From a virus (lineage: Duplodnaviria > Caudoviricetes): a stretch of DNA of 64,000 nucleotides. Below are positions 2,500 to 59,678 of the stretch, piece after piece (the stretch's first letter is position 1; each line of letters opens with the position of its first letter). The stretch spans positions 933 through 64,932 of IMG/VR virus record IMGVR_UViG_3300042549_001429. The stretch is one strand, 5' to 3'. The translations under genes were made by a program, and so were the position numbers. Under the pieces are notes generated by a model. That model made no database searches. It saw only the letters and a program-made list of their open reading frames with translations, and had not been told where the DNA came from.

Positions 2500-2652
2500 A
2501 TGGCAACGTCAAAATTAGTTGAGAAAACTACTGAAGAGGAAGTAAAGCCAACGCAAGTAGTTGTTGAGCCTACTCCTGTTGTTGAAGAAAAAAAGGAAGA
2601 GCAAGAAGTTGTTCAATATCCCGGTAACCCTACTAGAGGATTCCGTCAATAA
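2500..2652 (+). CDS. Small acidic hypothetical protein (50 aa, not in ORF track)
   Basis: MATSKLVEKTTEEEVKP...GNPTRGFRQ; fills the operon gap. Confidence 0.6.
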   Translation: MATSKLVEKTTEEEVKPTQVVVEPTPVVEEKKEEQEVVQYPGNPTRGFRQ

Positions 2653-2658
2653 TCTACT

Positions 2659-2949
2659 ATGGCTGACAAGTCTAAAATGAAATGTAACAGTCCTGTCCCC
2701 TCTGATAGAGCGGGAAAGAAAAGGATGGTTAAAGCCTGTTCCGGAGGGGAGGAGAAGCTCCTCCACTTTGGAGCAAAGGGCTATGGTCATAACTATAGCG
2801 CTGAGGCACGTAAGAGTTTTAAGGCACGTCATAGTTGTGACACGGCAACTGACAAGTTAACTCCACGCTATTGGGCGTGTAAGAACTTATGGGCAGGCCC
2901 GGGTGGTTCAACCAAATCATCTCCTAAGGGAAGAAAAGGAAAATACTAA
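2659..2949 (+). CDS. Small basic phage protein
   Basis: HFGAKGY..RKSFKARHSC..RYWACKNLW motif recalled from aquatic viral genomes. Confidence 0.7.
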   Translation: MADKSKMKCNSPVPSDRAGKKRMVKACSGGEEKLLHFGAKGYGHNYSAEARKSFKARHSCDTATDKLTPRYWACKNLWAGPGGSTKSSPKGRKGKY

Positions 2950-3284
2950 TGAAAGACGCTTGCTATAAAAAAGTAAAAGCATCTTATGATGTGTTCCCTT
3001 CTGCTAGGGCTTCTCAAGCTATTGCTAAATGTCGTAAGGCATCAGGCAATGTAAGGAAGTCAGAGGAGGGTACAAGCCTAAAGCGTTGGGAGAAGGAGAA
3101 GTGGCAAGACACTAAGAGTGGTAAAGCCTGTGGAGCCGGAGGAAAGAATGAGTACTGTCGTCCAACGACACGAGTGTCTTCAAAGACACCAAAGACCAAG
3201 AGTGAAATTAGCCCGTCAAAACTTGCAGCAAAAAAGGCTGAGAAGTCACGGGTAGGTATGGGAAATAAAGTTTCAAAAGTTTAG
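2949..3284 (+). CDS. Small basic Cys-containing phage protein
   Basis: DACYKKVKA..FPSA..LKRWEKEKW..CRPT.RVS.KTPKT. Confidence 0.7.
   Translation: MKDACYKKVKASYDVFPSARASQAIAKCRKASGNVRKSEEGTSLKRWEKEKWQDTKSGKACGAGGKNEYCRPTTRVSSKTPKTKSEISPSKLAAKKAEKSRVGMGNKVSKV
3174..3189. repeat. 16-bp palindromic motif copy (GTGTCTTCAAAGACAC), intragenic
   Basis: Exact match to the dispersed motif. Confidence 0.9.
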
Positions 3285-3292
3285 TATATTTG
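3285..3292 (+). promoter_or_regulatory. Bacteroidota -7 promoter element TATATTTG
   Basis: TAnnTTTG about 20 nt upstream of ATG 3314. Confidence 0.55.
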
Positions 3293-3313
3293 TTCAAATT
3301 AAAATCAAATCAA

Positions 3314-3718
3314 ATGGCAACGAAAGTTAACAAATCAAATGCGGAGTTATTGGAATTAGTGCGTGCACTGAATATGACTCCTGCAGAAAAGGGTAGCAAA
3401 GCTGAAGCTAAGCTCAAGAAGATTGCTGAGAAAATCAAGCCAATCTTTGAAAGTTACAACGAGAAGCGTGAAGACATTCGTCTTGACCATGCTCACACGG
3501 AGTCCAATGGTGTATTGGACCTGAATGAGAAAGGTGAATACAAGTTCACTAAAGATGGAATCAAGGCGATGGCTAAGGACATGAAAAAACTTCTTGATGA
3601 TACTTTTGAGTTTTATCAGTTTACATTTTCAACCGAAGGTATCGAAAGCTTCAAGTTCCTCGCAGGATGGGTTGAAGGCATAGAGCCTGAGCAACCTTCC
3701 GAAAGCGATGAGCAATAA
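3314..3718 (+). CDS. Hypothetical protein
   Basis: Start moved to the ATG after the AAATCAAATCAA leader. Confidence 0.75.
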   Translation: MATKVNKSNAELLELVRALNMTPAEKGSKAEAKLKKIAEKIKPIFESYNEKREDIRLDHAHTESNGVLDLNEKGEYKFTKDGIKAMAKDMKKLLDDTFEFYQFTFSTEGIESFKFLAGWVEGIEPEQPSESDEQ

Positions 3719-3803
3719 AGTAAAAACACAATAGACGTAATAAGCAAGGCATCAGCTCTTTTGGGTTGATGCCATTGTTGTTTATACACCATAAAAAATA
3801 ATC

Positions 3804-3968
3804 ATGGAAAAGAGCAAAGGTCTAGGAGATACTATCGAGAAGATAACCACAGCAACCGGAATAAAAAAAGTAGTTGAAACTGTAGCAAAAGCAACAGGCA
3901 AAGATTGTGGCTGCAAAGCACGCAAAGACGCATTAAATAGAGCATTTCCTTATCAAGATAAAAAATAA
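3804..3968 (+). CDS. Small phage protein with CGC motif (54 aa, not in ORF track)
   Basis: MEKSKGLGDTIEKITTATGIKKVV..DCGCKARKDALN. Confidence 0.7.
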   Translation: MEKSKGLGDTIEKITTATGIKKVVETVAKATGKDCGCKARKDALNRAFPYQDKK

Positions 3969-3973
3969 AAAAT

Positions 3974-4459
3974 ATGTCAGTTTTTAAATCACAATTTTCA
4001 AGAGCACTCGCAGTTATCAAGAGCGATAACGCTGACGTGCCGTTTCCTGCTCCTGTAAAATCAGGGGAGAACACAAGTGCCGTAGAGAACGAGCTTGTTG
4101 ATACTGCAGGCGACTTTATCAATGCAGGTGTAAAGACCGGTGACATTGTTTACAACACTACTGATGGCTTAGCTGCTACAGTATTGTCTGTGACAAGTGC
4201 TACTGTGATTGTGCTTAATGCTGACATCTTCGCTGCCGCTGAAAAGGTTTACACTATCTACCAAGCAAGTCCTCAGACTACCATTGGCAACACAGGATGT
4301 AATCTTTACATTGGTGGAGCGGGTAACGTAAAGGTTACTACAATTGGCGGAGACATTATTACATTCACTGCTGTACCTGTTGGCTCAGTATTGCCTGTTC
4401 AGGTGATTAAGCTTCACAGCACAGGAACTACAGCTACACTTGTAAATGCTCTTTGGTAA
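3974..4459 (+). CDS. Putative virion structural protein
   Basis: Beta-rich; C-terminal LYIGGAGNVKV..FTAVPVGSVLPVQV motif typical of phage structural proteins. Confidence 0.55.
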   Translation: MSVFKSQFSRALAVIKSDNADVPFPAPVKSGENTSAVENELVDTAGDFINAGVKTGDIVYNTTDGLAATVLSVTSATVIVLNADIFAAAEKVYTIYQASPQTTIGNTGCNLYIGGAGNVKVTTIGGDIITFTAVPVGSVLPVQVIKLHSTGTTATLVNALW

Positions 4460-4747
4460 ATGAATCCTCAAGAAAACAATAGGCTTGATTATATGGCAGC
4501 AGAGTTAGATGCGTTGAAAAATGACGTAGCTGAGGTAAAGGCTATTGTCAAAGATATGCATAACCTTCTTTCAGGCAACCCTATCGACAAAGACTCAAGC
4601 GGAATGATTGGGGATTTGAGGAAGATGAAGCATGAAGTTTATGAGTTGAAATCTGAATTGAAAAAATACAAGAACTATTTTTATGCGCTAGTTACCCTAG
4701 TGGGGCTTGGCGTATTAAAAGTGATTATTGAAATACTAAAAGGGTAA
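4460..4747 (+). CDS. Coiled-coil protein with C-terminal TM helix (possible lysis accessory)
   Basis: Heptad pattern, then YFYALVTLVGLGVLKVII. Confidence 0.55.
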   Translation: MNPQENNRLDYMAAELDALKNDVAEVKAIVKDMHNLLSGNPIDKDSSGMIGDLRKMKHEVYELKSELKKYKNYFYALVTLVGLGVLKVIIEILKG

Positions 4748-4869
4748 TGGCAAAGTCAGTATCAAGTATAAAAAAAGTTAGCTTCGGTAAAAGAAAAACC
4801 GGTGTAGCTAAGAAATCATATAACAAACACAGTCCAAAACCAAAAAAATATAGGGGGCAAGGAAGATGA
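4747..4869 (+). CDS. Small basic protein ending KKYRGQGR (40 aa, not in ORF track)
   Basis: TAATG and ATGA overlaps with both neighbours. Confidence 0.6.
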   Translation: MAKSVSSIKKVSFGKRKTGVAKKSYNKHSPKPKKYRGQGR

Positions 4870-5102
4870 AAAAATTTTTTGAATGGTCAGCAGGATTCTT
4901 GTCTGAGAACGGACAAGCTTCAAGTAAAAGATTTGTAGGAGTGTTTAGTGCAATAGCATTGTGCTACACTTTGTATGCCAACCATGATTCGGTCAATGAA
5001 CCTTCAGAGGCTTTGGTGTATTCGGTTGCGGCTTTGTCTGCTGCTGCTCTAGGTATTAGTGCGGCTGAGAAGATATTTAAAAAGCCGGCTGACAAAGAAT
5101 GA
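4866..5102 (+). CDS. Putative holin (2 TM)
   Basis: SSKRF followed by two hydrophobic helices and a charged C-terminus; lysis context. Confidence 0.65.
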   Translation: MKKFFEWSAGFLSENGQASSKRFVGVFSAIALCYTLYANHDSVNEPSEALVYSVAALSAAALGISAAEKIFKKPADKE

Positions 5103-5857
5103 AAAATCTTTCCAAGGAGGAGCTACTAAGTAGATTGGAAGCGATTAATCGTAGCAATGCGATTATTTACTTTGACCTAAATGGATTTATTCTTGGTATG
5201 AATGCGATATTCTTGAAGGCTATGGGGTTTCAAGAAAAGGAACACGATAAAATAATAGGCAAGCATCACAGCATTTTTGTGTCCTACGAGTACTCAAAGT
5301 CTGATGACTACAAAAAGTTTTGGGAGACCTTAGCAAGTGGTCAATTTTATGAGGGTGAATTTGAAAGGAGAAAAGTAGACGGAAGCCCAATTTATTTGCA
5401 AGCAACCTACAACCCAATCTTTGACGATAGTGGAACAATTACAAAAGTAATGAAGATAGCAACCGACATTACTGAAACCGTTGTCAGCAAGAATAAAATT
5501 AATGAGCTATCAAAGACCTTGCAGACTGAGTTAGATAATACTAACAAGTTAAAGTTAGCTATTGAAATAGAAAAGGACGCAGCGTTAAACGATTTGGATG
5601 CAACAATAAAGAAAAGTCAAAACGAGCTGATTAAAACAATTGTTAAATCTGCTTTATTCGTGATTATGAGCGTAGGCTTTATTACAACCATTATGTACTC
5701 GTTTGCAATCTTGTCAAACAAGGACACACAGATTATTGGGTCAACGTGGTCGAATATGTTTTCGGTTTTATTGACCAATGCATTCTCAATAGTAGGTACC
5801 ATTATGGGAATTAAATATGCAACACAAGACGATAAAAAAATAAAAAATGAAAATTAG
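5099..5857 (+). CDS. PAS/PAC sensor - coiled coil - 2 TM protein in lysis cassette
   Basis: AINRSNAIIYFDLNG..IIGKHHSIFV..FWETL..GEFERR..YLQATYNPIFD..KVMKIATDIT, then coiled coil and two hydrophobic helices. Confidence 0.85.
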   Translation: MKNLSKEELLSRLEAINRSNAIIYFDLNGFILGMNAIFLKAMGFQEKEHDKIIGKHHSIFVSYEYSKSDDYKKFWETLASGQFYEGEFERRKVDGSPIYLQATYNPIFDDSGTITKVMKIATDITETVVSKNKINELSKTLQTELDNTNKLKLAIEIEKDAALNDLDATIKKSQNELIKTIVKSALFVIMSVGFITTIMYSFAILSNKDTQIIGSTWSNMFSVLLTNAFSIVGTIMGIKYATQDDKKIKNEN

Positions 5858-6314
5858 TAACCACCTATCTCTTTCCGAGGTAACAAGAAGCGAAACAGCA
5901 AAGCGTAGAGGAATCAGTAACACTCCAACCGCTGAGCATTTAGAGAACTTTAAGAAATTGGCTGAAAATATATTTGAGCCTATTCGTGAGCATTTTAAAG
6001 TACCTATTCATGTGTCGTCAGGGTACAGAAGCAAGGAGCTCAATTCTGCTATAGGTGGAAGTTTGTCCTCTCAGCATTGTCAGGGCGAAGCCATTGACAT
6101 CGACATGGATGGAAGCAGTAGTGGTGTTACCAACGCTGACGTTTACAACTTTATTAAGGACAATCTTGAGTTTGACCAATTGATTTGGGAATTTGGTACA
6201 GACGCTAATCCTGATTGGGTTCACGTTTCTTACGAAAGCACAGGCAAACAACGCAAGCAAAAACTAAAAGCTGTAAAAACAAATGGTAAGACTTCTTACG
6301 TTAATTTGCCTTAG
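5847..6314 (+). CDS. Endolysin, peptidase M15 family
   Basis: SSGYRS..SQHCQGEAID..WVHVS zinc-peptidase motifs. Confidence 0.9.
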   Translation: MKISNHLSLSEVTRSETAKRRGISNTPTAEHLENFKKLAENIFEPIREHFKVPIHVSSGYRSKELNSAIGGSLSSQHCQGEAIDIDMDGSSSGVTNADVYNFIKDNLEFDQLIWEFGTDANPDWVHVSYESTGKQRKQKLKAVKTNGKTSYVNLP

Positions 6315-6738
6315 TCTATCCTTATTTTCTTGCGCAACAAGAAAGGTAGCTATATCTAAGTCTGTAGTGGAGACACGTACAGACAGTGTTGTCGTGGAGA
6401 AAAAAGATAGCGTAGCGGTTCAGCAGAATGCTATTAGCATAAAGGAGGACATTGACGAGATTGAGATTGTGCCAATAGACACCTCCAAGCCTTTAGTTAT
6501 TGGAGGCAAAGAGTACTTTAATGCTACGGTCAAAATTAAAAAGACCAAGCGTGAGGTTGTAGATTCTACAAAAACAACTGTTGCTGTTAGCGACTATAAG
6601 CAGACCGAGGTCAGCAAAGAAGAGACAAAAGAGACTTATGACAAGTCAATAGATAAGAAGCCTAGCTACATGAATTTGTGGTGGCTTCTATTGATTCCAA
6701 TCGCTGTTTTGTCGATTAGATTCTTCCTTAAAAAATAA
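6283..6738 (+). CDS. Putative unimolecular spanin (lipoprotein with C-terminal TM)
   Basis: Signal peptide with lipobox LFSC, beta-rich middle, C-terminal LWWLLLIPIAVLSI. Confidence 0.65.
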   Translation: MVRLLTLICLSLSLFSCATRKVAISKSVVETRTDSVVVEKKDSVAVQQNAISIKEDIDEIEIVPIDTSKPLVIGGKEYFNATVKIKKTKREVVDSTKTTVAVSDYKQTEVSKEETKETYDKSIDKKPSYMNLWWLLLIPIAVLSIRFFLKK

Positions 6739-6751
6739 GGGTTATCTTTAG

Positions 6752-6759
6752 TATATTTG
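6752..6759 (+). promoter_or_regulatory. Bacteroidota -7 element TATATTTG
   Basis: Consensus match about 20 nt before ATG 6779. Confidence 0.5.
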
Positions 6760-6778
6760 TTTAATTATTTGACAGCGA

Positions 6779-9700
6779 ATGGCACGGATAAGTACATACC
6801 CAATAATATCTACCCCTACCCTCAACGACTTGTTGATTGGTACAGACGTGGACAACCTCAATAACACTAAGAATTTTACGATTAGTGAGATTGGTGATTT
6901 GATTGGACAAGACTACGTGCCCTATGTTGGAGCTACAGGCAACGTAAATTTAGGCGCTTTTAACATTCAAGCAGCTGCATTTATTGTGCCGGGAGGTCTT
7001 GCGAACCAATTCCTAAAAGCCAATGGTACGCTAGACAGCACCGCATACGTTCCTGAGACAAGAACAATTACCATTAATGGTACGACATTTAATCTTTCAG
7101 CCAATAGAACTTGGGACCTGCCTACGATTGATAGCTTAACAACTATTGGTACAAGTGGAGCAGCGACATACATTGGCAAGGTTTTAAATATCCCTGTCTA
7201 TCAGGCTCAGGGGAACTATATCACTCAACTTTCGGGAGAGGCTACAGCCTTAGGCCCCGGAAATGCAACCGTTACTCTTGATAACACCGCTGTAATTAGC
7301 AAGGTATTGTCAGGATTAAATATTACAGGAGGCAACATTGTTGCTTCTGACAATATTTTACAGGCATTCGGTAAGGTTCAAAACCAAATCAACAGTCTTG
7401 TTGGCGGTGTTCAGTACCAAGGTACATGGAATGCAGCAACCAATACTCCATTCTTACAGAGTTCAGTTGGAACGAAGGGTTACTATTATGTGGTAAGTGT
7501 GCCGGGTAATACAAACCTTAACGGCATTACTGATTGGAGACTTGGTGATTGGGCTATATTTAATGGGACAACATGGGACAAGGTTGACAATACTGATGCG
7601 GTTGTAAGCGTTAATGGATATACCGGAGCCGTAGTATTGACCTTTAGCGATGTCGGTGCTCCTCCTGCAACAAGAAATCTCACCATCAATGGCGTTGGTT
7701 ATGACTTGAGTGCAGATAGGTCTTGGACAGTTGGTGACGTAAGAACTGATGGTTCTTATGCGAATCCGTCTTGGATTACTTCACTTGGTTGGAATAAGAT
7801 TACAAGCACGCCTACTACGTTAGCCGGATATGGCATTACTGATGGCGCATCAAATACTACCACATTAACAATTAATGGAGTAACATTTGACCTTAGCGCC
7901 AATAGAACTTGGAATGTAGGGACAGTAACTAGCATTGCTACAAGTGGGCCACTTACAGGTGGAACCATTACTACATCAGGTACAATAGGCATTACTCAGG
8001 CGGGTCCAACTACGGATGGTTATTTGAGTAGCGCTGATTGGAATGACTTTAATGATAAACTAGATTCGCTTTCAGCTGCAGCTCCAATTACTTTGGCGGC
8101 AGGGGTTATAGGCATTACTCAGTCAGGAGCGTCCTCAAATGGTTATTTGAGTTCAACTGATTGGAATACTTTCAACAATAAACAGAATGCGCTTACCAAC
8201 CCGGTTACGGGTACCGGTACAACATATACGCTTCCAATGTGGAGCGGAGCAACTACGCTTACCAATAGTCCATTGTCTTATGTATCTGATGCATTTACGT
8301 TTCAATACAACAGCAACTCAGGCGGCACGGTAAACTTTACAAACAGTGGATTGACTGCGTACACGTATTCAATTCAGATGAACAACTTTGGTTCTCCGAG
8401 GTCAACTGTACACAGCTATACTGATGGCATTGTTGTAAACTCAATTGCCGGCACTCAGGTGTCACGAATGTTTGCCAATGGTAATTTTATCCTTGGTGAT
8501 GGCTTTGTTGACAATGGCTATAAGCTTGAGATAGAAGGAAATCTTTATGTTGATACAATTGCAAATGCAACTGTTGATACTGACAAGTTCCTTGTTTCAG
8601 ATTCAGGAGTTATTAAGTATAGAACAGGAGCAGAGTTAATTAGCGATATTGGAGCTGTTCCTTCTACTAGAACGCTTACCATTAATGGTACCGCTTTTGA
8701 TTTAAGCGCTGACCGTAGTTGGTCAGTTGGTACGGTTACATCTGTAGACATGAGTGTGCCTACAGGGTTTACCATTTCAGGGAATCCCGTTACATCTAGT
8801 GGCACACTTGCTGTAGCATTTGCTTCAGGATACAGTTTGCCTACAAATGCTGTTCAGGCCAATTGGACTACAGCGTATAATGATTCAATTGTAAGTGCTT
8901 CAGTAACAGGTACTGCTACTAAAACTTTGACATTGAATCAGCAAGATGGCGGTACTGTTACAGCTTCTTGGACTGACATTGATACAGCCCCGGTTACAAG
9001 TGTGTTTGGAAGAACAGGGGCAATTATAGCTCAGTCGGGTGATTACACAACGACCCTTGTTACCGAGGGCACTAATTTATATTACACAGACGGGCGTGCT
9101 CGTTTGGCTATTAGTCTTACTACAACAGGCAGCAGTGGTGCTGCTACATACAATAGTGGTACAGGAGTATTTAATATCCCTAATTACGGAAGTGCGTTAA
9201 CTGCTTACGTTCCTTATTCAGGAGCGACTCAAAGTGTTAACCTTGGAGAGTGGGGATTGACCGCAGGATTTGTAGGGTTTGACCTTACTCCTACCGGTAC
9301 ACCATCTGTTCCGGGCACGATGTTTTGGAGTGCTGACGATGAGACTGTAGACCTTGTAATGGATGCAGGCGTTACTCAGAAGATTGGTCAGGAGACGTTC
9401 TACCTTGTAAAGAATCAGACAGGAACAGCTATACCAAAGGGGACTGTTGTTCGTGCTGATGGAACGGTAGGGTCAAGCGGAAGGATATTGATTGCTCCAT
9501 TCTTAGCGAATGGCACAGTACCTTCTAAGTTCTGTATCGGTGTAACGGCAGAGACTATTGCTGATGGAGCAGATGGATTTGTTACTGCATTTGGAAAGAT
9601 TCGTCAGATTAACACTGCGTCTTTCCCGAATGGTACTGTGCTTTATGCCTCCCCTACTTCAGCGGGTGGATTCACTGCAACAGCTCCTCAGGCACCGAAC

Positions 9701-11491
9701 AACATTGTAACGGTAGCTATTGTAATTAACTCAAGCACAAGCAATGGAGCAATATTCGTAAGGCCAACTTTTTCCTCAAACATTAATGAGGATGAAGGGG
9801 TAAAGATTACTTCTCCTGTAGCGAACGAAGGTTTGTTTTATAATGGTGGCTATTGGGTAAATAAGACTATCGCTGCTGCGCTTGGATATACTCCTGCAAA
9901 TGCAGCAACTACGCTAACTATAAATGGGCAAACTTACGACATCAGTGCCAATCGCACATGGTCAGTAGGTACTGTTACTAGTGTTGACATGAGCGTGCCT
10001 ACAGGATTCGGTATAGCAGGTAATCCTATTACAGGCGCAGGCACTCTTGCTTTGACATTTGCAGCAGGCTACAGCTTGCCGACAAATGCATCTCAAGCGA
10101 ATTGGGACACAGCATACAGCAATCGAATTACATCTTTGACAACTACAGGTACAAGTGGTGCAGCTACGTTGGTCTCCAACGTGCTCAACATTCCTCAGTA
10201 CCAAGCTCAGGGCAACTATATTACTTCACTTACGGGTGAAGCCACAGCAAGTGGACCGGGCGCAGCAAGTGTCACGCTCACCAACTCTGCTGTTACCGGC
10301 AAGGTCCTTACAGGGCTCACTGTAGCGGGTTCTTCTATCGCATCGACAGATAGTATCCTTACAGCATTTGGTAAGCTCCAAGGTCAAGTAAATGACCTTA
10401 TCGGTGGCTTGCAATATCAGGGTACTTGGAACGCATCTACAAACACTCCTACCATTACATCAGGTGTTGGTACTGATGGTCACTTCTACATTGTTAGTGT
10501 GGCAGGAAATACCACCATTGATGGAATAAGTGGATGGGAGATTGGGGATTGGATAGTATTCCATGGCACTGCTTGGCAAAAGGTGGACAACACTGAGTCT
10601 GTAGTTTCTGTGAATGGACTTACGGGAGCAGTTACGCTTACTACTAGCAATATATCTGAGGGAACTAATTTGTACTTTACAAACAGCAGGGCTCGTCAGG
10701 CTATCAGTTTAACTACTAGCGGCAACAGTGGTGCTGCCACTTATGATAACGGAACAGGGGTATTGAATGTGCCTCAGTACAGCTTATCAGGATTAGGTGG
10801 GGTGCCAACTACAAGGACATTGACTATTAATGGTACAGCTTTTGATTTGAGCGCTAATAGAAGTTGGAGCGTAGGTACGGTTACTAGCATTGCTACTAAC
10901 GGCCCGATTCAAGGAGGGACTATTACAGGAACAGGAACGATAAGCATTACGCAGGCAGGTTCTGCCTCAGATGGATACTTGAGCAGCACTGATTGGAATA
11001 CGTTTAACAACAAGCAGGGTACAATAAGCTTGACTACTACAGGAAATAGCGGTTCATCTACATTTATTTCTAACGTGTTAAACGTGCCTACCTATACTCT
11101 TGCAGGATTGGGAGGTGTGCCTACTACTAGAACGCTTAGCATTAACGGTGTAAGTTTTGACTTGAGTGCAGATAGAAGTTGGAGTGTTGGTACGCTTACA
11201 GGCTCAGGTAATACGAACTATGTTCCTAAATGGAACGGCAGCACGTCACTTACTGACAGCTTATTATTTGATAATGGTAGTGGATTAGGATTGGGTACTG
11301 CGAGCATCAATGCTTCAGCGTTGTTCCAAATGGACAGCACGACTAAAGGCTTCTTGCCTCCACGTATGACAGCTGCTCAAAGAGGAGCTATCTCAGCACC
11401 TGCTCAAGGATTGATAGTTTATCAAACAGATGGCGTAATTGGTTTGTATATTTACGCTAACTCCGTATGGAGAACACTTGGAATGATTTAA
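6779..11491 (+). CDS. Long tail fibre protein with modular internal repeats
   Basis: 1570 aa, T/G/S-rich; repeated RTLTINGxxxDLSAxRxWxVG, DWNTFNNKQ and YQGTWNA modules. Confidence 0.8.
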   Translation: MARISTYPIISTPTLNDLLIGTDVDNLNNTKNFTISEIGDLIGQDYVPYVGATGNVNLGAFNIQAAAFIVPGGLANQFLKANGTLDSTAYVPETRTITINGTTFNLSANRTWDLPTIDSLTTIGTSGAATYIGKVLNIPVYQAQGNYITQLSGEATALGPGNATVTLDNTAVISKVLSGLNITGGNIVASDNILQAFGKVQNQINSLVGGVQYQGTWNAATNTPFLQSSVGTKGYYYVVSVPGNTNLNGITDWRLGDWAIFNGTTWDKVDNTDAVVSVNGYTGAVVLTFSDVGAPPATRNLTINGVGYDLSADRSWTVGDVRTDGSYANPSWITSLGWNKITSTPTTLAGYGITDGASNTTTLTINGVTFDLSANRTWNVGTVTSIATSGPLTGGTITTSGTIGITQAGPTTDGYLSSADWNDFNDKLDSLSAAAPITLAAGVIGITQSGASSNGYLSSTDWNTFNNKQNALTNPVTGTGTTYTLPMWSGATTLTNSPLSYVSDAFTFQYNSNSGGTVNFTNSGLTAYTYSIQMNNFGSPRSTVHSYTDGIVVNSIAGTQVSRMFANGNFILGDGFVDNGYKLEIEGNLYVDTIANATVDTDKFLVSDSGVIKYRTGAELISDIGAVPSTRTLTINGTAFDLSADRSWSVGTVTSVDMSVPTGFTISGNPVTSSGTLAVAFASGYSLPTNAVQANWTTAYNDSIVSASVTGTATKTLTLNQQDGGTVTASWTDIDTAPVTSVFGRTGAIIAQSGDYTTTLVTEGTNLYYTDGRARLAISLTTTGSSGAATYNSGTGVFNIPNYGSALTAYVPYSGATQSVNLGEWGLTAGFVGFDLTPTGTPSVPGTMFWSADDETVDLVMDAGVTQKIGQETFYLVKNQTGTAIPKGTVVRADGTVGSSGRILIAPFLANGTVPSKFCIGVTAETIADGADGFVTAFGKIRQINTASFPNGTVLYASPTSAGGFTATAPQAPNNIVTVAIVINSSTSNGAIFVRPTFSSNINEDEGVKITSPVANEGLFYNGGYWVNKTIAAALGYTPANAATTLTINGQTYDISANRTWSVGTVTSVDMSVPTGFGIAGNPITGAGTLALTFAAGYSLPTNASQANWDTAYSNRITSLTTTGTSGAATLVSNVLNIPQYQAQGNYITSLTGEATASGPGAASVTLTNSAVTGKVLTGLTVAGSSIASTDSILTAFGKLQGQVNDLIGGLQYQGTWNASTNTPTITSGVGTDGHFYIVSVAGNTTIDGISGWEIGDWIVFHGTAWQKVDNTESVVSVNGLTGAVTLTTSNISEGTNLYFTNSRARQAISLTTSGNSGAATYDNGTGVLNVPQYSLSGLGGVPTTRTLTINGTAFDLSANRSWSVGTVTSIATNGPIQGGTITGTGTISITQAGSASDGYLSSTDWNTFNNKQGTISLTTTGNSGSSTFISNVLNVPTYTLAGLGGVPTTRTLSINGVSFDLSADRSWSVGTLTGSGNTNYVPKWNGSTSLTDSLLFDNGSGLGLGTASINASALFQMDSTTKGFLPPRMTAAQRGAISAPAQGLIVYQTDGVIGLYIYANSVWRTLGMI

Positions 11492-11501
11492 AAGATAAGA
11501 T

Positions 11502-14500
11502 ATGTCTAATTTAGCAACGATAGTAAACAACATATTAGCAGACAGTGGGATTGACGACATCAATGTTGTTGTCACCACAGGGTCATATACTAACCCTGCT
11601 TGGATAGTCTCATTGCCTTGGACTAAGATTACCGGAACTCCTACTACGCTTGCAGGTTACGGCATAACCGATGCCTATACGCAAACGCAGGTAAATAATT
11701 TGCTAAATGCTAAGCTATCGTTGAGTGGTGGCACAATGACAGGTGCTATTAATTTGCCAAATGGTATTGTAGGAATTAATGTCGGAGATGATGCGACTAT
11801 TTCAGATAGAAATGTTGCTAACACAATGTATGTCGCAGGTATTCAAAATACTGATAGAGGATATATTAACTTCAGTGAAACAGGAGGTAATCAACTTGGA
11901 GCAATTAATGGTGGTGATTTAACTTGGAGAGGTGTTCCTATTATTACAACATCAAATGTTTCAGGAACGGTTGATTATATACCTAAGTTTACTGCTGCTA
12001 ATTCAGTAGGTAATAGTGCATTGCGTGAAATTTCAGGTAATTTAGGGTTGGGCATTGCACCAAGCAGTTGGAGTAATGTTAAGGTTCTTCAAATTGGAGC
12101 AACAAGCATAGGTGGATATAGCAATACAGGATATTTTAACTCTAATGCTTATTATAATTCAACTACAAGTTGGACATATGTTAACTCATCATATGCAGCA
12201 AGATATGAATTAAACTCAAGTGATGCAGGTATTCATAAATGGTATGTAGCACCAACAGGAACAGCAGGGGCAACAATATCATTTATTACTGCAATGACTT
12301 TGAATAATTCCGGACAACTTGGTATTGGAGTAGACCCTACTCAAATGCTTGATGTTAATGGCAATGGTAAATTCAGAGGACAGGATTTGTTTCTTGGTAG
12401 TGATGTAACTGCTGATAATGTAATCTACATATACTCAAAGAATGGAGCACAGAGTCAGATAAGAACAAATGCAGGTGTTTCATCTTCTTATAATGGGATG
12501 ATGATTGCTTCAAACTATAACCAAGCAGCTTCATTGCCGTCTTGGAGTTTAGATTTAGGTGGGGCATTAAACTCAACAGGAAATGTAAATACTTTTACAG
12601 TCGGATATAAACCATTTGGTGGAGCGTGGGCATCATTAATGATTGTTAATGCAAATGGAGACACCGTTGTTTCAAATAATTTTACATCAGCAAGTGCTGT
12701 ATTTAACAATGGAACAAATAGTACAAACGGTATTAAAGTAGTTTCATCCACAACGGCATCTGTATTTACAGGAGGTATTGAGTTTATTAGAACAACTGTA
12801 GCAGGAGGCTCTAAGATTCAACCATTAAGAGATGCCGCAATAGGTGGTGTTGGATTTGACTTTTTAGTTACTACCAACAATGCTGCTGAGATAGCCGCTA
12901 GTTATACTTCTGCATTAAGTATTTTAAATACAGGTGTAGCTACCTTTTCTAATAATATATTTATTGGAGCAGGTAAATATTTAGGTTACTCAGCATCTGC
13001 GTATGTTACACCTGAAGATAATATTCAAGGTGCAAGAATTAAAACCCCCGGAGGATTTTTAGTAGAATCAGCAGGTGCGGTTACTTTCAACAACCTTGCA
13101 GGAACGGGAACAAGAATGGTTGTTGTTAATTCAAATGGCGTATTTTCTACACAAGCAATTGGTAGTGGAAGTATTACAGGAAGTGGAACTACTAACTATG
13201 TCCCTAAATTTACAAGTAGTAGTGCTATAGGTAATAGTGTTATTATTGATAGCGGTTCAGATGTAACTGTTGGTAATGCTCTTCGTGTAAATGCTTTTGG
13301 AAACGTAGCAGGTGGAACAATAAGAATGGGTGCTGTAAATGATGGTACAGAGAAGTGGTCTTATTTAGTAAGCACTCAATACAACAGTTCATCTAATCCA
13401 CAAGGATTTTCGGTTATAGGAGCATATACTACTGCAACAGCAAATCAAATTGTAATTGGAGGTAGTATTTATGAAGCTAATCCTGCTACAGAAATACAAT
13501 TTTGGACACATACTGCTGTAACTCACGGAACAGGTGGTTCAAAAAGAATGACAATTGATACCAATGGTAACGTAGGCATAAATACTGCAACACCAACTCA
13601 AAAGTTTGAGGTTAGTGGTGGAGCAATTATTGCTTCAGGTTTTGGAAATCGTGCAGCAGGAACAGGTAAGGCTCTTGAAATTGGAATGGATGGGACAAAT
13701 GCAGTTTTACAAGCACTTGATAGAACGGCAAATGCATTTATTCCAATTGCTATTAATTCAAGTGGAGCTACTTTCAACAATAGTGTAACTGCAGTAGGAT
13801 TGTTTTCAACAACATCAGCAGCAGGAAATTTAGCTGCAAAAATTAGAAATGGGGTTACATCAGGAAGTGGCAGTACAGGATATGGGTTAGCGATAGAAAG
13901 TGAAGCAAGTGCTGCAACAAGTTATGCTTTAACTGTTAGAAACCTTGCAGAGTCAACTACTTATTTTCACATTTCAACTGAAACGGGGAAAGTGGGGTAT
14001 GTTGGAATTGGTACGACATCATCAAATTATAGACTGCAAGTAGGAGACTTAACAAATACATCAGGAGTTAAAAATGATATTTTTATTACAGGTGATACAG
14101 TTAATACAAATGGATTTTATGCAAGATTAATATTTGGTAATTCTAATCAAAGTGGTGGTTCAACTGCAAGTATTAGAGCGGAAAGAATAACAACTAACTT
14201 TGCTACTGAACTTACTTTTTATACTAATGAAGCAGGAAGTGCAGGTAATGGGGCTGAAAGATTACGTATAGCCTCTACAGGAAATATTGGAATAAATACT
14301 GCAAATCCATTAGCAGGACTTCAAATAGAAAAGTACGGCAGCAAGTTTGATTCAGACGTACAGTATAATCAACCTGCAGGTAATGTATTCTTATCTGTAA
14401 CAGGAGCAGTTGCTGACCAAGTCAATTGGTTTGGTATGAGAGGTAGTTACAACTCAAGTACAGGAAGTGCAAATTTACTTTTACAAGCAAACTACAGAGA

Positions 14501-38328: not shown

Positions 38329-41300
38329 ATGAACGAGTTAGAGAAATTGTATAACGTATTGTTTCGTGAAGGAAAGACATCAAAGTCATTCCAAGAATTT
38401 CAAACTCAATACGCTAATGATAATGCGTATAGAGAGAAGGTTTATGAAGTTGTTCTTAGAGATGGATTTACCGATAAAGACAAAGAAACTTTCTTCTCAG
38501 TGTACAAACCATCGTCTAGTGTTCAGTCACCTGCTGCTCAGTTGCCTGTTGCTGAGGAAATAAAAAAAAAAGAAAGTACTACGGCATTACCATCGGCAGA
38601 TGGTGGATTGGCGCAACAAGGGCCTAAAAACCGTGCTCCATTATTTAAGCCTGAAGGATTTGATAAACAAATGCCTACTGCTGCAGACGCAACCTTCGTC
38701 AAGAAACCTAAGTTAGATTTAGTAGAAAAGAAAGTAGCAACAGCTGTAGATGATAGAGCTCTTGAGGTAGAAAAAAGAAAAGCCGAAGACCTATTTGATA
38801 AGCAGACTGTAAAGCCACGAGTAGACCAAAGCGTTTACTTGAAAGAAAGGCTTTCTAATATCAACAAGAACCTTATTAACAGGGAGGAAGAATACGTTGT
38901 CCCTGAAATGCAGTATCAATTCGGAGACTTAGGATTTAAGTTTGAAGAGACAGGTGCGACCGGTGACTTTATGAAAGTGGTTGCCCCTAATGGTAAAACA
39001 ATAGAAGTGTCTTTAGATAACTTCCTTGACTCATCATCTGAAGCAGAGGCAAACAAGCTACAAAGTTTTATCAAAAACAATACTCCTCAAAAGGGATTGT
39101 TTGTGCTTGAAAAAACAATGAGAGAACAGGACAAAAAGTTCAACTCTCAAAAGCAAGTCGATGATGAGATTAAAAAAATCAACGCAGATGTAACTGCTTT
39201 GAATCAAAAGCAGAAGAACTTTTTATTAAAGAAGACTGCATACGAAAACGAGATAGCAGAGTTAGAAAAGACACCTGCTTCACAAAGGAATACCGAGCAA
39301 TTTAATGCCAAGCTAAATCAGTTAGAGCAGCGAAGAGCTGCAATGACCGAAGAGGTTCAGTCTATTCTTGGTGAAGAGGAAGCAATAAAAAATAAAGGCA
39401 AGGCACTAGATACTTCTGTAGGTAAGTACACTATCGCAAAATCAAAGCAAGGGACTTGGGGTGGAGGTATATGGGATTCGTTTCTTGGTGGTATTGGCAA
39501 GATGGCATCTGCCGCTGCGAGCACCACTATTGATATAATGACAGAGATAGCCCCTGCAGGTTTCGGAATGAGTCCTCAGGATGTTAAAAATGTAACCATT
39601 GAAAAGGCTGCTAAGATTGGCGTTGCTCCTCCTACAGCAAATCAAAATATTGAAGATTGGAAAAAGACATTGACCCCTCAGCAATTGAATGATTGGGAGG
39701 ATGAGATGGATGATTACATAAAAAAATCTTTGAAGAAGGAGGTTCTACCTTCTACTCGTGTTGGTTTAAAAACATTGGCAGGAGACCCTGATACCACGCT
39801 TGAATGGGAGAACCTAAAGAAGCAGGGATTTTGGGGTGGTGCTTTTCTAGGATTAGCAGAATCACTTCCTGCCATGATAGGCGGCTCCGGTCCTGCAGGA
39901 TGGGCTCAGAGAACAGCACAGATGTATGGTCAAGTGTCAGATGGATTGGCTCAAGAGATGGAGAACGACCCTGAGTTTGCAGACATATCAGAGAATGAAA
40001 AGTTAGCAATCACTTTACCAATTGGTATTACCTCTGCTGTGTTAGAAGCTTACGGTTTAAAAAATGTGTTAGCAAGCACCGGTATAATCAACAAAATTAC
40101 AATGTCCGCTTTAGGTAAAGCGGGGAGAGGTGTTGGTGCAAAGTCATTTAGAGAGCTAGTAGAGAACGAGGTTCAGAGTAGATTACTAAAAGGAACATTG
40201 ATTTTAGGGGCAGCAGGTCTTGCTGAAGGTGAGACAGGTGCGCTTCAAGAAGTTTCTGAAACCACATTCAAAGCAATCTACAATGAAATTAAGGGGAAGG
40301 ATATGTTTGAAACCCCTGAATCAGCGTTGGATTTTGTAGAGAATGTTGTTGTGGCAGGAGCGCAAGAAGCCGTTGGTGGATTCGTGTTGGGAGTGCCGTC
40401 TTCTGTAAGTGCCGCTTATAGTGAGAAAGGATTTCTCAAAATGGACGATAATGTCTTCAGGACATTTGAGCTCATGGCTAATGATGAGACACTGCAAAGT
40501 GCTTATATAGCCAAGCTGAAAGAGAAGATTGCGAATGGCGAAATAACCGTAGAAGAAGGTAAGAATAAGTTAAATGACTATCGTAATTCAGTTGGCTTAT
40601 TCAGACAACTACCTGATGGCTTAACCACTCAGCAGAAGAAAGAGGCGATGAATCTTTTGAAAGAGAAAAGAGATTTAGAGCAGTACGTAAACGGTAAAGA
40701 TGCTTCTTTAGTTAGCCGTCAGAAGAATAGAATCAATGCTATCAATGAAGAGCTTACAAAAATATCTGAGCAAGATGGTGGGCAGGTTCAATCAGAGACA
40801 ACTCCTGAGGCTACAAAAAGAAGAGAAAGAATTGTAGAGTTACTCAAGGTGCTCGAAGATGACAATACTGCCATCGAATACGATACCTCAAATAAATTGC
40901 CTTTAGAAGAAAGGAACAAAGTAATTGAAGAAATAAAAACCCTTAAAGCAGAAGAAGATGCCGTTCAAAAGCAAGCAACAAGTCAAGTACCTGTACAGTC
41001 AGGAGCCGGAGTTAGCCAAGAAGTGGCGCAAGGAGAACCCCAAGCAGAACCTCAAGTCGCTACCCAAGAAGGTGTCCAAGAAGAAGTAGTGTCTTCAAAG
41101 ACACGGGTCAACATTGCCCCGTTCTTTAATACAAAAGTTGAGACAGTACAAGAGGCTGAGCAATTAAGACAGGCTCCTGAATACAAGGCGTATAAGGAGA
41201 CCTTGGTTAAACTTGCTGAGCAACTTGGTATCCCGGGTATAATTATTGACGATGTTATCGGTGGTTACAAGAATGAGTCGGGTGAAGAGATTGTAGAAAT

Positions 41301-58488: not shown

Positions 58489-59580
58489 CTAGGCTTGGAA
58501 CCTGAGCACCTCACTCTCACTGAACCACTCACCGCAACCACTACAGTGGTAGTTCGAGAACCCGTCATGCTCCAAGTCATGGAAGCACTCCACACACACA
58601 GGCTTCTCATTGAGTACATCAAAGTCGCAGTCATCGCAGTCATCATCAATGAAGTCTAGCAAACTCAATTGGTATTTGTTAGCCACATACTTTGTCTCCT
58701 TCAAGTCCTCCTCCTCGTAGTACCATGCCCTGCTTGTCTCCTGAATATACGAAGTGTGAAACATCTCACCCGCACTCGTCTCCTTGATATTGAAGTAAAT
58801 CCAACAGGTCAAAGACTTACCCTTCACAACAATTGGCACCTGCTTTCTCCTGTACCAAGTCGGGTGACCCTCCAACCTGTCAAGGTTTGCCAACACCGTA
58901 CCACTCACCTTGAACACGTCCACCTCCACATTGTAACCTTTTCCACTCTCGTCAATCAAGTAGGGAAGTCCCCTGATTATAAGCGGATACTTGTTTAAGG
59001 TCTTGCCCTTACCCACGTGCTTGGAACTTGTCAGGTAGCGATTGTAATTGTTGTAGCCCTTCTTGAGCGTACCATACACCGCAACCAAGTTATCCTCCAA
59101 CACATTGTCTTTGCTGTACCACACACCGTCACGCTGTGTCCACAACTCTTTGTTGTAAATCTGATACGTCCTGCTGTGCGTGTTGATAGTCACGAACCTG
59201 CACTCATGCTGCTCCAATTCTTTTTTCCACTTGTGGCGGGGCACTCTCCCGAGGCTCTCAGCCAATACACGTGAGTCACTCTTGTTGACATTACCCAAGC
59301 CACGTATCGTGCCATTCATCATAAGCCACTCATGCTTGTTGTCACCGCATCTGAATGGGTGCGTGTTCTCTTTGTTGATGGCACCCACAGTGGCGTACCT
59401 GAAGTGAGCAATGAAAGGGCGCTCTGTATCTAGCACCTTGTACTCTGCTGATTTGTGATAGGTCACCTCAAAGGTATCCAACCATATTACCCCCAAGCCA
59501 TGAGGATTGATTCGTGCTGAAGTCTTTGCGACCTCCTTGGACATTTGCTTGCCCTTCTGTTTGATAATGATTACACACAT
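58489..59580 (-). CDS. Class II glutamine amidotransferase - gamma-glutamylcyclotransferase - Zn finger fusion
   Basis: True start MCVII (Ntn Cys); NPHGLG, HFRYAT, NTHPF, MNG, SDS; then VAVYGTLKKG..LDRLEGHP; CxxC..CxxC. Confidence 0.85.
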   Translation of the reverse strand: MCVIIIKQKGKQMSKEVAKTSARINPHGLGVIWLDTFEVTYHKSAEYKVLDTERPFIAHFRYATVGAINKENTHPFRCGDNKHEWLMMNGTIRGLGNVNKSDSRVLAESLGRVPRHKWKKELEQHECRFVTINTHSRTYQIYNKELWTQRDGVWYSKDNVLEDNLVAVYGTLKKGYNNYNRYLTSSKHVGKGKTLNKYPLIIRGLPYLIDESGKGYNVEVDVFKVSGTVLANLDRLEGHPTWYRRKQVPIVVKGKSLTCWIYFNIKETSAGEMFHTSYIQETSRAWYYEEEDLKETKYVANKYQLSLLDFIDDDCDDCDFDVLNEKPVCVECFHDLEHDGFSNYHCSGCGEWFSESEVLRFQA

Positions 59581-59602
59581 AGATAGATTTGGTTTGTGGG
59601 CA

Positions 59603-59618
59603 GTGTCTTTGAAGACAC
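59603..59618. repeat. 16-bp palindromic motif copy in 5' leader of GATase gene
   Basis: GTGTCTTTGAAGACAC between promoter and start codon. Confidence 0.9.
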
Positions 59619-59646
59619 AGAACCCGATTAATAAACGAGTAATAGA

Positions 59647-59678
59647 CAAAGATAATACATAGAATGTACATATCCAAA
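59647..59678 (-). promoter_or_regulatory. Bacteroidota sigma promoter (-33 TTTG, N20, -7 TATCTTTG)
   Basis: Both consensus elements present. Confidence 0.75.

Follow-up and report, generated by a model that had tools for sequence, protein, structure and literature searches.

Why would a phage keep a sensor protein among the genes with which it lyses its host? The question is raised by a 64,000-nucleotide stretch of viral DNA (Duplodnaviria; Caudoviricetes), positions 933 to 64,932 of IMG/VR record IMGVR_UViG_3300042549_001429, which was analysed at its full length and is referred to here as the window. In it, a plus-strand open reading frame (ORF) at 5099–5857 encodes a 252-amino-acid (aa) protein in which a PAS domain is joined by a long helix to a hairpin of two predicted transmembrane (TM) helices, and the gene lies between those of a 78-aa holin-like membrane protein and an M15 peptidase endolysin. 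An earlier reading of this DNA, made from its letters alone (the sequence-only reading), had proposed a sensor-gated holin or antiholin. Comparison of the protein and its surroundings across related viruses leads us to favour, at a probability of roughly one half, the view that this phage-only protein is an accessory effector that would time lysis in response to a signal, acting generically on the membrane and not through one particular holin.

The PAS sensor, the long helix and the membrane hairpin

The PAS domain spans residues ~20–128 (5156–5482, plus strand) and is predicted to be cytoplasmic. Four Pfam models recognise it above their curated cut-offs: PAS_9 (PF13426; residues 26–126, E 8.2e-11, 42.5 bits against a cut-off of 27), PAS_3 (PF08447; E 7.3e-10, 39.4 against 25.6), PAS (PF00989; E 1e-09, 38.8 against 22.6) and PAS_4 (PF08448; E 6.7e-09, 36.4 against 23.1). 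No Pfam family other than PAS matches the protein at E ≤ 0.1, and it therefore carries no kinase, methyl-accepting chemotaxis protein (MCP) signalling or GGDEF domain at that threshold. On both points the sequence-only reading was right, as it was in placing two TM helices at the C-terminus: Kyte–Doolittle 19-residue windows exceed 1.6 at residues 177–206 and 220–238, and an AlphaFold2 model built with 27 aligned relatives (mean pLDDT 73.5) shows a PAS fold at residues 21–123, with a five-stranded sheet and flanking helices, followed by helices at 125–205 and 211–249 that are joined by a 5-residue turn. The first of these is predicted to run without interruption from the PAS domain into TM1 (helix 125–205, TM1 ~183–205; 5471–5713, plus strand). 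It had been read as a coiled coil, a description for which no clear support emerged: in a heptad test with a single register over residues 126–184, hydrophobic residues filled 0.41 of the a/d positions against a background of 0.36, and because a canonical heptad register is not evident we call the segment a long helix and not a proven coiled coil. The protein ends in a charged tail, QDDKKIKNEN. Since the 180-residue soluble PAS part stands N-terminal of TM1 and has no signal peptide, the hairpin would lie in the membrane N-in/C-in, with an outer turn of ~5–14 residues.

The solved sequences nearest to the PAS domain are the flavin adenine dinucleotide (FAD)-binding PAS of MmoS (3ewk, E 5.2e-09), phototropin LOV1 and the aerotaxis receptor Aer (8dik), and its Foldseek neighbours are LOV proteins, chimeras of LOV domains with histidine kinases, MmoS, NifL (2gj3) and YtvA, with a PAS/LOV probability of 1.00. 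A LOV-type blue-light photoreceptor was considered and ruled out, because the photoactive LOV cysteine (in G-R-N-C-R-F-L-Q) aligns, by HMMER against phototropin-1 LOV1, with Ser58, a serine present in 27 of 27 relatives. In FAD-binding PAS domains of the Aer/NifL/MmoS type, a helix tryptophan that follows G-x-x-H and the asparagine of an N-R-R-K-D/N-G stretch have recognised roles. The invariant W75 aligns with the tryptophan of Aer and MmoS, while Arg90 takes the place of the asparagine; a flavin in this PAS domain is plausible. MmoS, NifL, Aer and the LOV-histidine kinases likewise combine a PAS fold with an exit helix that runs into an effector; what differs here is the effector, a membrane hairpin in place of a kinase, an MCP or a transcription factor.

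A protein search with the 252-aa sequence returned 4,684 proteins at E ≤ 0.001. Among the best 120 of these, identities were 69–83% and lengths 356–386 aa, and many had been named 'methyl-accepting chemotaxis protein' by JGI. That name was rejected: the MCP signalling domain, which we take to be PF00015, is absent, and the C-terminal half is a helix with two TM helices. In the longer relatives the first PAS domain is followed by an inserted second one; lengths overall span 245–392 aa. In IMG/VR we found 166 relatives and fetched the best 80 loci (70–94% identity), 79 of which contain the whole gene; L077 was left out of the locus counts because its gene runs off the contig, and L034 and L068 are cut close to the gene.

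Across these 80 sequences, every residue from T210 to T242, comprising the outer-face turn and TM2 (5726–5824, plus strand), is identical. The PAS domain averages 2.67 amino acids per site, and across the PAS domain, long helix and TM1 the averages run from 2.6 to 2.9. The codons beneath the fixed segment do vary, at a mean of 3.2 per site over residues 208–242, which points to purifying selection on the protein and not to a conserved DNA element. The serine, threonine, asparagine and glycine residues of TM2 gather along one side of the helix (R = 0.63; shuffles average 0.23, and 0.1% of them reach the observed value), and the hairpin motif is kept in the wider family down to 24–31% overall identity.

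Searched against 1.84 billion cluster representatives, the last 127 residues hit 96 clusters (50% identity), and for 71 the match reached E ≤ 1e-10. With lengths of 130–230 aa, most of these are too short to hold a PAS domain. The sequence-only reading had asked whether the two-helix region occurs alone as a holin in relatives. It rarely does stand alone, as most relatives of 130–230 aa have both the long helix and a domain at the N-terminus. Among 14 short cluster representatives, one, P0151 (97 aa), resembles an intact short form, and most of the others look like fragments or like internally deleted or chimeric calls, so we do not claim a stand-alone holin form of the hairpin. In the short forms P0179, P0195 and P0196 the N-terminal domain leads straight into TM2 or into the end of TM1, which reflects either real internal deletions or artefacts of assembly or gene calling.

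A single peptide-pattern scan of one genome for each of 185,579 prokaryote species produced only eight matches, all on contigs of 3–89 kb from metagenome-assembled genomes and carrying eight different lineage labels; the short contigs and scattered lineages suggest binned phage DNA. Three IMG/VR scans yielded 166, 335 and 253 relatives, and the nearest ESM Atlas clusters are 100% viral (best score 0.89, to be taken as a lead only). As judged from these searches the family is phage-only, and it is defined by its membrane hairpin.

Lysis genes, optional presence and interchangeable inputs

If the protein acts in lysis, its relatives should keep the company of lysis genes, and they do. An endolysin, identified with Pfam and PHROGs, lies within 2.5 kb of the hairpin gene in 72 of the 79 PAS-hairpin loci (M15 in 35, GH19 in 32, GH24 in 6), and a member of the 78-aa holin-like family within the same distance in 71. 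The latter count comes from a profile search in all frames; a count over plus-strand ORFs only, from 40 aa upwards and with overlaps removed greedily, detected 61 of 79. The finding named in the sequence-only reading as one that would speak against it, homologues without a link to lysis genes, was thus not obtained. The hairpin gene may precede or follow the holin-like gene, and likewise the endolysin gene, depending on the locus, and with three unrelated endolysin families involved, the linkage has evidently survived both rearrangements and endolysin replacements. An impression that the hairpin protein is the only multi-TM protein in L043, L045 and L057 proved wrong, as a holin-like gene is present in each. 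Calcineurin-like metallophosphoesterase genes were also seen beside the lysis or hairpin genes of several phage lineages (L018:6211–7092, L031:5772–6755, L217:1345–2031).

The same cassettes also occur without the hairpin gene. Counting loci with at least 1.5 kb on both sides of the anchor gene, we found it in 26 of 60 loci anchored on the holin-like gene and in 17 of 57 anchored on M15; it was absent from the remaining 34, nearly all of which have M15 too, and from the remaining 40. The existence of cassettes that lack it marks it as accessory. In 21 hairpin-less loci anchored on the holin-like gene, the slot between this gene and the endolysin gene was empty in four (L328, L332, L369 and L387, where the holin-like gene stands against M15 with a gap of −4 to +6 nt) and otherwise held an i-/o-spanin-like pair (10 loci), two small multi-TM proteins (3) or a spanin-like protein (4). 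Because the filled slots, in 17 of 21 loci, hold genes of lysis type only, we regard the slot as a lysis slot.

Could the 252-aa protein then be the phage's holin itself, a class II-like one extended at its N-terminus by a large sensory part? It has the two TM helices and the charged tail that would suit a holin, as would its place directly upstream of the endolysin gene and the polar/small face of TM2, and four loci (L040/L041 and L073/L074) have no member of the 78-aa family within 2.5 kb, L040/L041 having no other convincing multi-TM ORF either. We nevertheless consider this very improbable, since the 34 of 60 holin-anchored cassettes without the hairpin gene keep the holin-like gene, a separate holin-like gene accompanies the hairpin in 71 of 79 loci, the length of 252 aa (245–392 aa in relatives) is far above the usual ~60–150 aa, and no described holin family in Pfam or PHROG matches.

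Beyond the PAS-containing relatives, the same hairpin is found behind quite different N-terminal parts. These include one PAS domain, two PAS domains, a different PAS domain (P0136) and a GAF domain (P0130; PF01590, E 2.5e-17); among the clusters found with the last 127 residues the commonest is a small domain of unknown type with an L-E-G-N-I-L-K motif, and in some relatives nothing but a long helix precedes the hairpin. The small-domain form, as modelled (pLDDT 87), consists of the small N-terminal domain, a helix of ~150 residues and the hairpin. Among 90 unique loci of such non-PAS relatives, a gene for a 143-aa single-domain receiver (PF00072, E 7.7e-08) lies directly upstream in 81, and a membrane histidine kinase with PAS-PAS-HATPase_c architecture is encoded upstream of the receiver in 68. 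This set of kinase, receiver and hairpin genes occurs on IMG/VR contigs of which some exceed 300 kb (L082–L237; for example L098:1942–3546, L099:3573–4001 and L099:4001–4663). The PAS domain of the 252-aa protein is 48% identical (E 2e-40) to the second PAS domain of the phage histidine kinase. Near the trio, L108 carries a class II aminoacyl-tRNA-synthetase-like gene (5644–6513, minus strand; PF00152, E 1.4e-13), and L115 encodes a 620-aa protein (3133–4992) that appears Hsp70/DnaK-like by eye.

Receiver and HATPase_c domains are both absent from the 64,932-base record of the window phage, in a search whose controls matched in 12 and 14 of 14 genomes; the sensor therefore appears to be wired directly to the hairpin in this phage. 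In the three loci with GAF–hairpin fusions (L162–L164, 341–362 aa) the receiver gene is likewise absent, and in L166–L174 the hairpin gene has a separate GAF-only match at a distance of ~2 kb, a pattern of fusion and splitting. With one invariant element served by several interchangeable inputs, the hairpin behaves as an output module of signalling proteins. On these sequence comparisons its input would come from a PAS or a GAF domain fused to it or, as we infer, from a phage kinase by way of the receiver.

The non-PAS relatives also bear on whether the hairpin is a specific antiholin, that is, whether it holds the 78-aa holin-like protein inactive until the PAS domain senses its cue, as a cytoplasm-sensing counterpart of RI of phage T4. 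The hairpin gene adjoins the holin-like gene and overlaps it translationally, members of the two families co-occur in 71 of 79 loci, and presence in some cassettes only is what one expects of a regulator. Yet residues 210–242 of the hairpin are invariant while the proposed partners are 17–95% identical to that of the window and fall into two sub-types. The partner family is also missing within 2.5 kb in 8 of 79 loci (among them L034 and L068, which are cut close to the gene), and it was found anywhere in the fetched locus in just 16 of the 90 non-PAS loci. A complex prediction for the hairpin (residues 165–252) with the 78-aa protein scored 0.00 in a run made without controls and is evidence neither way. 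We judge the antiholin explanation unlikely.

Quite unlikely, by our estimate, is an explanation with no role in lysis at all, in which the protein rides in a late operon and serves superinfection exclusion or membrane-anchored signalling on a conserved host target, for example in respiration, division or cell-wall precursor transport. The unchanging outer turn and TM2 would suit a protein that touches a conserved target, JGI names homologues as chemotaxis-type proteins, and 49 of the 90 loci of large-phage-type relatives have neither GH19 nor M15 within 3 kb. Against it, the place among lysis genes was kept through three endolysin replacements and several reorderings, the slot in hairpin-less loci held only lysis-type genes wherever it was filled, and the MCP signalling domain that a chemotaxis role would lead one to look for is absent.

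The lysis cassette and its source genome

The ORF map and the sequence show six plus-strand genes in a row at 4460–6738 whose stops and starts overlap: by TAATG at 4747, by ATGA at 4866 and at 5099, by 11 nt at 5847–5857 and by 32 nt at 6283–6314. The ATGA at 5099 joins the stop of the 78-aa gene to the start of the 252-aa gene, and the M15 gene starts at 5847, 11 nt inside the 252-aa ORF, whose TAG stop is at 5855–5857; both overlaps were correctly described from the letters alone. The first gene (4460–4747) encodes a 95-aa protein that is partly helical and ends in a TM segment (hydrophobic residues 72–95); it is XhlA- or 'hemolysin'-like by a weak match (phrog_937 'hemolysin', E 4.1e-4). 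For a relative at L043:4647–4997 the phrog_937 match is stronger (E 2e-06), and one to Pfam XhlA (1.5e-3) falls short of the cut-off. Next comes an ORF for a very basic 40-aa protein ending in YRGQGR (4747–4869), which overlaps its neighbours by 1 and 4 nt. Its cluster, c5, has members in 19 of 79 loci, in most cases immediately before the holin-like gene, and together with a related cluster, c27, such genes of 40–45 aa stand beside lysis genes in at least 19 of the 79.

The 78-aa protein (4866–5102; family 'c1') begins with a short N-terminal part and has two hydrophobic stretches before a charged tail. One Kyte–Doolittle segment, 49–67, is above threshold, and a second, weaker stretch at ~23–38 was recognised by eye. 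It matches no Pfam or PHROG family, and we call it holin-like by its size, hydrophobic segments and charged tail only. Downstream of the 252-aa gene lie the gene of the M15 endolysin (5847–6314, 155 aa; Peptidase_M15_3 E 6.5e-20, phrog_894 endolysin E 1.8e-37) and that of a 151-aa protein (6283–6738) resembling a unimolecular spanin. The latter has a lipoprotein-type N-terminal signal (…LFSC) and a C-terminal TM segment (hydrophobic residues 1–19 and 130–150) and matches phrog_5885, of unknown function, at E 8.4e-09; the architecture, which has features of phage T1 gp11-type spanins, suggests a spanin.

In lake metatranscriptomes from two studies there are contigs that cross the junction at 5099 (X11 record 2, 4787–5423; X17 record 9, 5057–5284), and X11 record 3 (5415–6619) spans the end of the hairpin gene, the M15 gene and the start of the spanin-like gene. 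Such contigs, which cannot show a single transcript, give a weak hint of expression, and parts that they leave uncovered are uninformative. A promoter and terminator scan of 2500–7500 gave counts not above those of shuffled sequences; a terminator-like hairpin lies at 3748–3773.

The parent record of 64,932 bases, of which the window is nearly all, has direct terminal repeats and is rated complete. The window encodes a large terminase, a portal protein, structural proteins, a primase/helicase, a helicase and long tail-type ORFs, and contains no tRNA genes. Megablast of 3000–12000 against 50,697 GenBank phage records gave no match, so that GenBank holds no close phage by this search, and tblastn of the 252-aa protein found three records only, each matching the PAS part alone at 37–41% identity. 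Near-identical DNA is present in lake-water metagenomes from several studies, 'lake water' being the run labels of those studies.

Elsewhere in the window, a DUF5872 protein (PF19197, E 1.4e-12) is encoded upstream of the cassette at 2949–3284, and a 142-aa ORF at 3290–3718 has a weak, sub-threshold match to the helical domain of the N4 virion RNA polymerase. A 3001-aa ORF at 38329–47334 matches PHROGs of unknown function only (phrog_32588, E 3.8e-81; phrog_3170). A 385-aa protein encoded on the minus strand at 58489–59649 has a gamma-glutamyl cyclotransferase-like part (phrog_2520, E 6.2e-20) and may represent an auxiliary metabolic gene.

A possible mechanism and known systems of lysis control

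We propose that the cytoplasmic PAS domain reads a signal in the infected cell, likely the redox or energy state or a small ligand. The single uninterrupted helix would couple it to TM1 of an N-in, C-in hairpin with a short outer turn, so that a change in the PAS domain could travel along the helix and toggle the hairpin between an inert and an active state. Once active, the hairpin would advance or delay the firing of the separate holin-like protein and hence the moment at which the M15 endolysin is let out. Holins are triggered when membrane potential is lost, and the route that we favour is self-assembly through the polar/small face of TM2, for instance into a leak of pinholin type through which the proton-motive force would fall. 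We prefer such a generic membrane action because the hairpin is invariant while both the holin-like partner (17–95% identity) and the endolysin family vary. We infer the topology, the cofactor, the nature of the signal, and any effect on lysis together with its direction.

A broader extension, offered tentatively, is that lake phages possess a signalling pathway of their own that ends in the virus-only hairpin, a gated membrane-depolarising trigger through which the redox or energy state of the host would set lysis. Within that extension, and with equal caution, the larger phages would use a kinase, a receiver and the hairpin, and the smaller ones would have fused the kinase's PAS domain, or a GAF domain, to the hairpin.

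Several observations weigh against a signal-controlled effector of lysis timing. The protein has no homologue of known function; its only PHROG match is phrog_1544, 'unknown function', at E 1.4e-3, and Pfam assigns it to no holin family. Great variability is usual among holins, and a TM helix that never changes might instead bind a conserved membrane target of the host. Counts made among the 80 PAS-hairpin loci do not represent independent events, given how closely these loci are related. The link to lysis genes is looser in the non-PAS relatives, where 41 of 90 loci have GH19 or M15 no farther than 3 kb away and the holin-like family is as rare as already described, and the matches in RNA libraries may be carried-over DNA. 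At the sensor end, the residues depart from MmoS, Aer and the LOV sensors in two places, which leaves a bound flavin no more than plausible: Ser58 replaces the LOV cysteine, and Arg90 stands where MmoS and Aer have the asparagine of their N-R-R-K-D/N-G stretch. Weighing these points, we retain from the sequence-only reading its architecture of a sensor joined to a membrane element; the part of a main holin is unlikely given the 34 of 60 cassettes that do without the protein, and a specific antiholin is less probable than the effector that we favour.

That reading had also known of no characterised example of such a protein, and full-text literature searches agree with it in returning no paper on a lysis-cassette membrane protein that is fused to a sensor domain such as PAS or GAF or linked to a kinase. 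Passages of a jumbo-phage survey deal with a different receiver-like domain (PMC7824862).

Among studied systems, one of the nearest in kind is T4 lysis inhibition, where accessory proteins encoded among or close to lysis genes, the periplasmic antiholin RI and the cytoplasmic antiholin RIII, likewise adjust the timing of a holin, T, in response to a signal. It is from this system, with its periplasmic cue, that signal-dependent adjustment of lysis is best known. RI and RIII are reported to regulate holin T, with RI described as sensing a superinfection cue and binding T (PMC8385771, PMC11413866), a precedent that would also suit the antiholin explanation. The sensing part of RI is periplasmic and has no PAS domain, whereas here a cytoplasmic PAS domain is helix-fused to a two-TM hairpin, and Pfam and PHROG give no sequence relation of the 252-aa protein to RI or RIII. 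An antiholin of the RI type was accordingly rejected as a classification, since RI-type proteins sense in the periplasm and the sensor here is N-terminal of TM1 and has no signal peptide.

In phage 21, the class II pinholin S21-68 depolarises the membrane and does not itself let endolysin pass. Class II holins of this kind share with the 252-aa protein two TM helices, an N-in/C-in topology, a charged C-terminal tail, a small-residue face on TM2 and a place upstream of the endolysin gene. They differ from it in that the present protein has 252 aa with a 180-residue sensory N-terminal part, is optional, coexists with a separate holin-like gene and matches no holin family. The kinase–receiver–hairpin trio of the relatives, for its part, resembles the bacterial two-component system LytSR with its holin-like/antiholin-like target LrgAB (PMC4830213), in which a sensor kinase and a response regulator are tied to holin-like proteins and membrane energy. 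LytSR is cellular and its LytR is a DNA-binding transcription regulator, whereas the receiver of the relatives is a phage-encoded single domain of 143 aa; in the window phage, kinase and receiver are both absent.

The timing of lysis sets burst size and phage fitness, and in the textbook systems it is the accumulation of holin that sets this timing. If the hairpin element does control lysis, these phages would read host physiology directly to time their burst, and this would be a cytoplasm-sensing lysis control without a studied counterpart. A sensor-gated membrane switch from a family that is modular and small may also be a useful part for controllable cell lysis. The hairpin family is common in lake viromes and, as read here from its sequences, would represent a new variant of phage lysis control.

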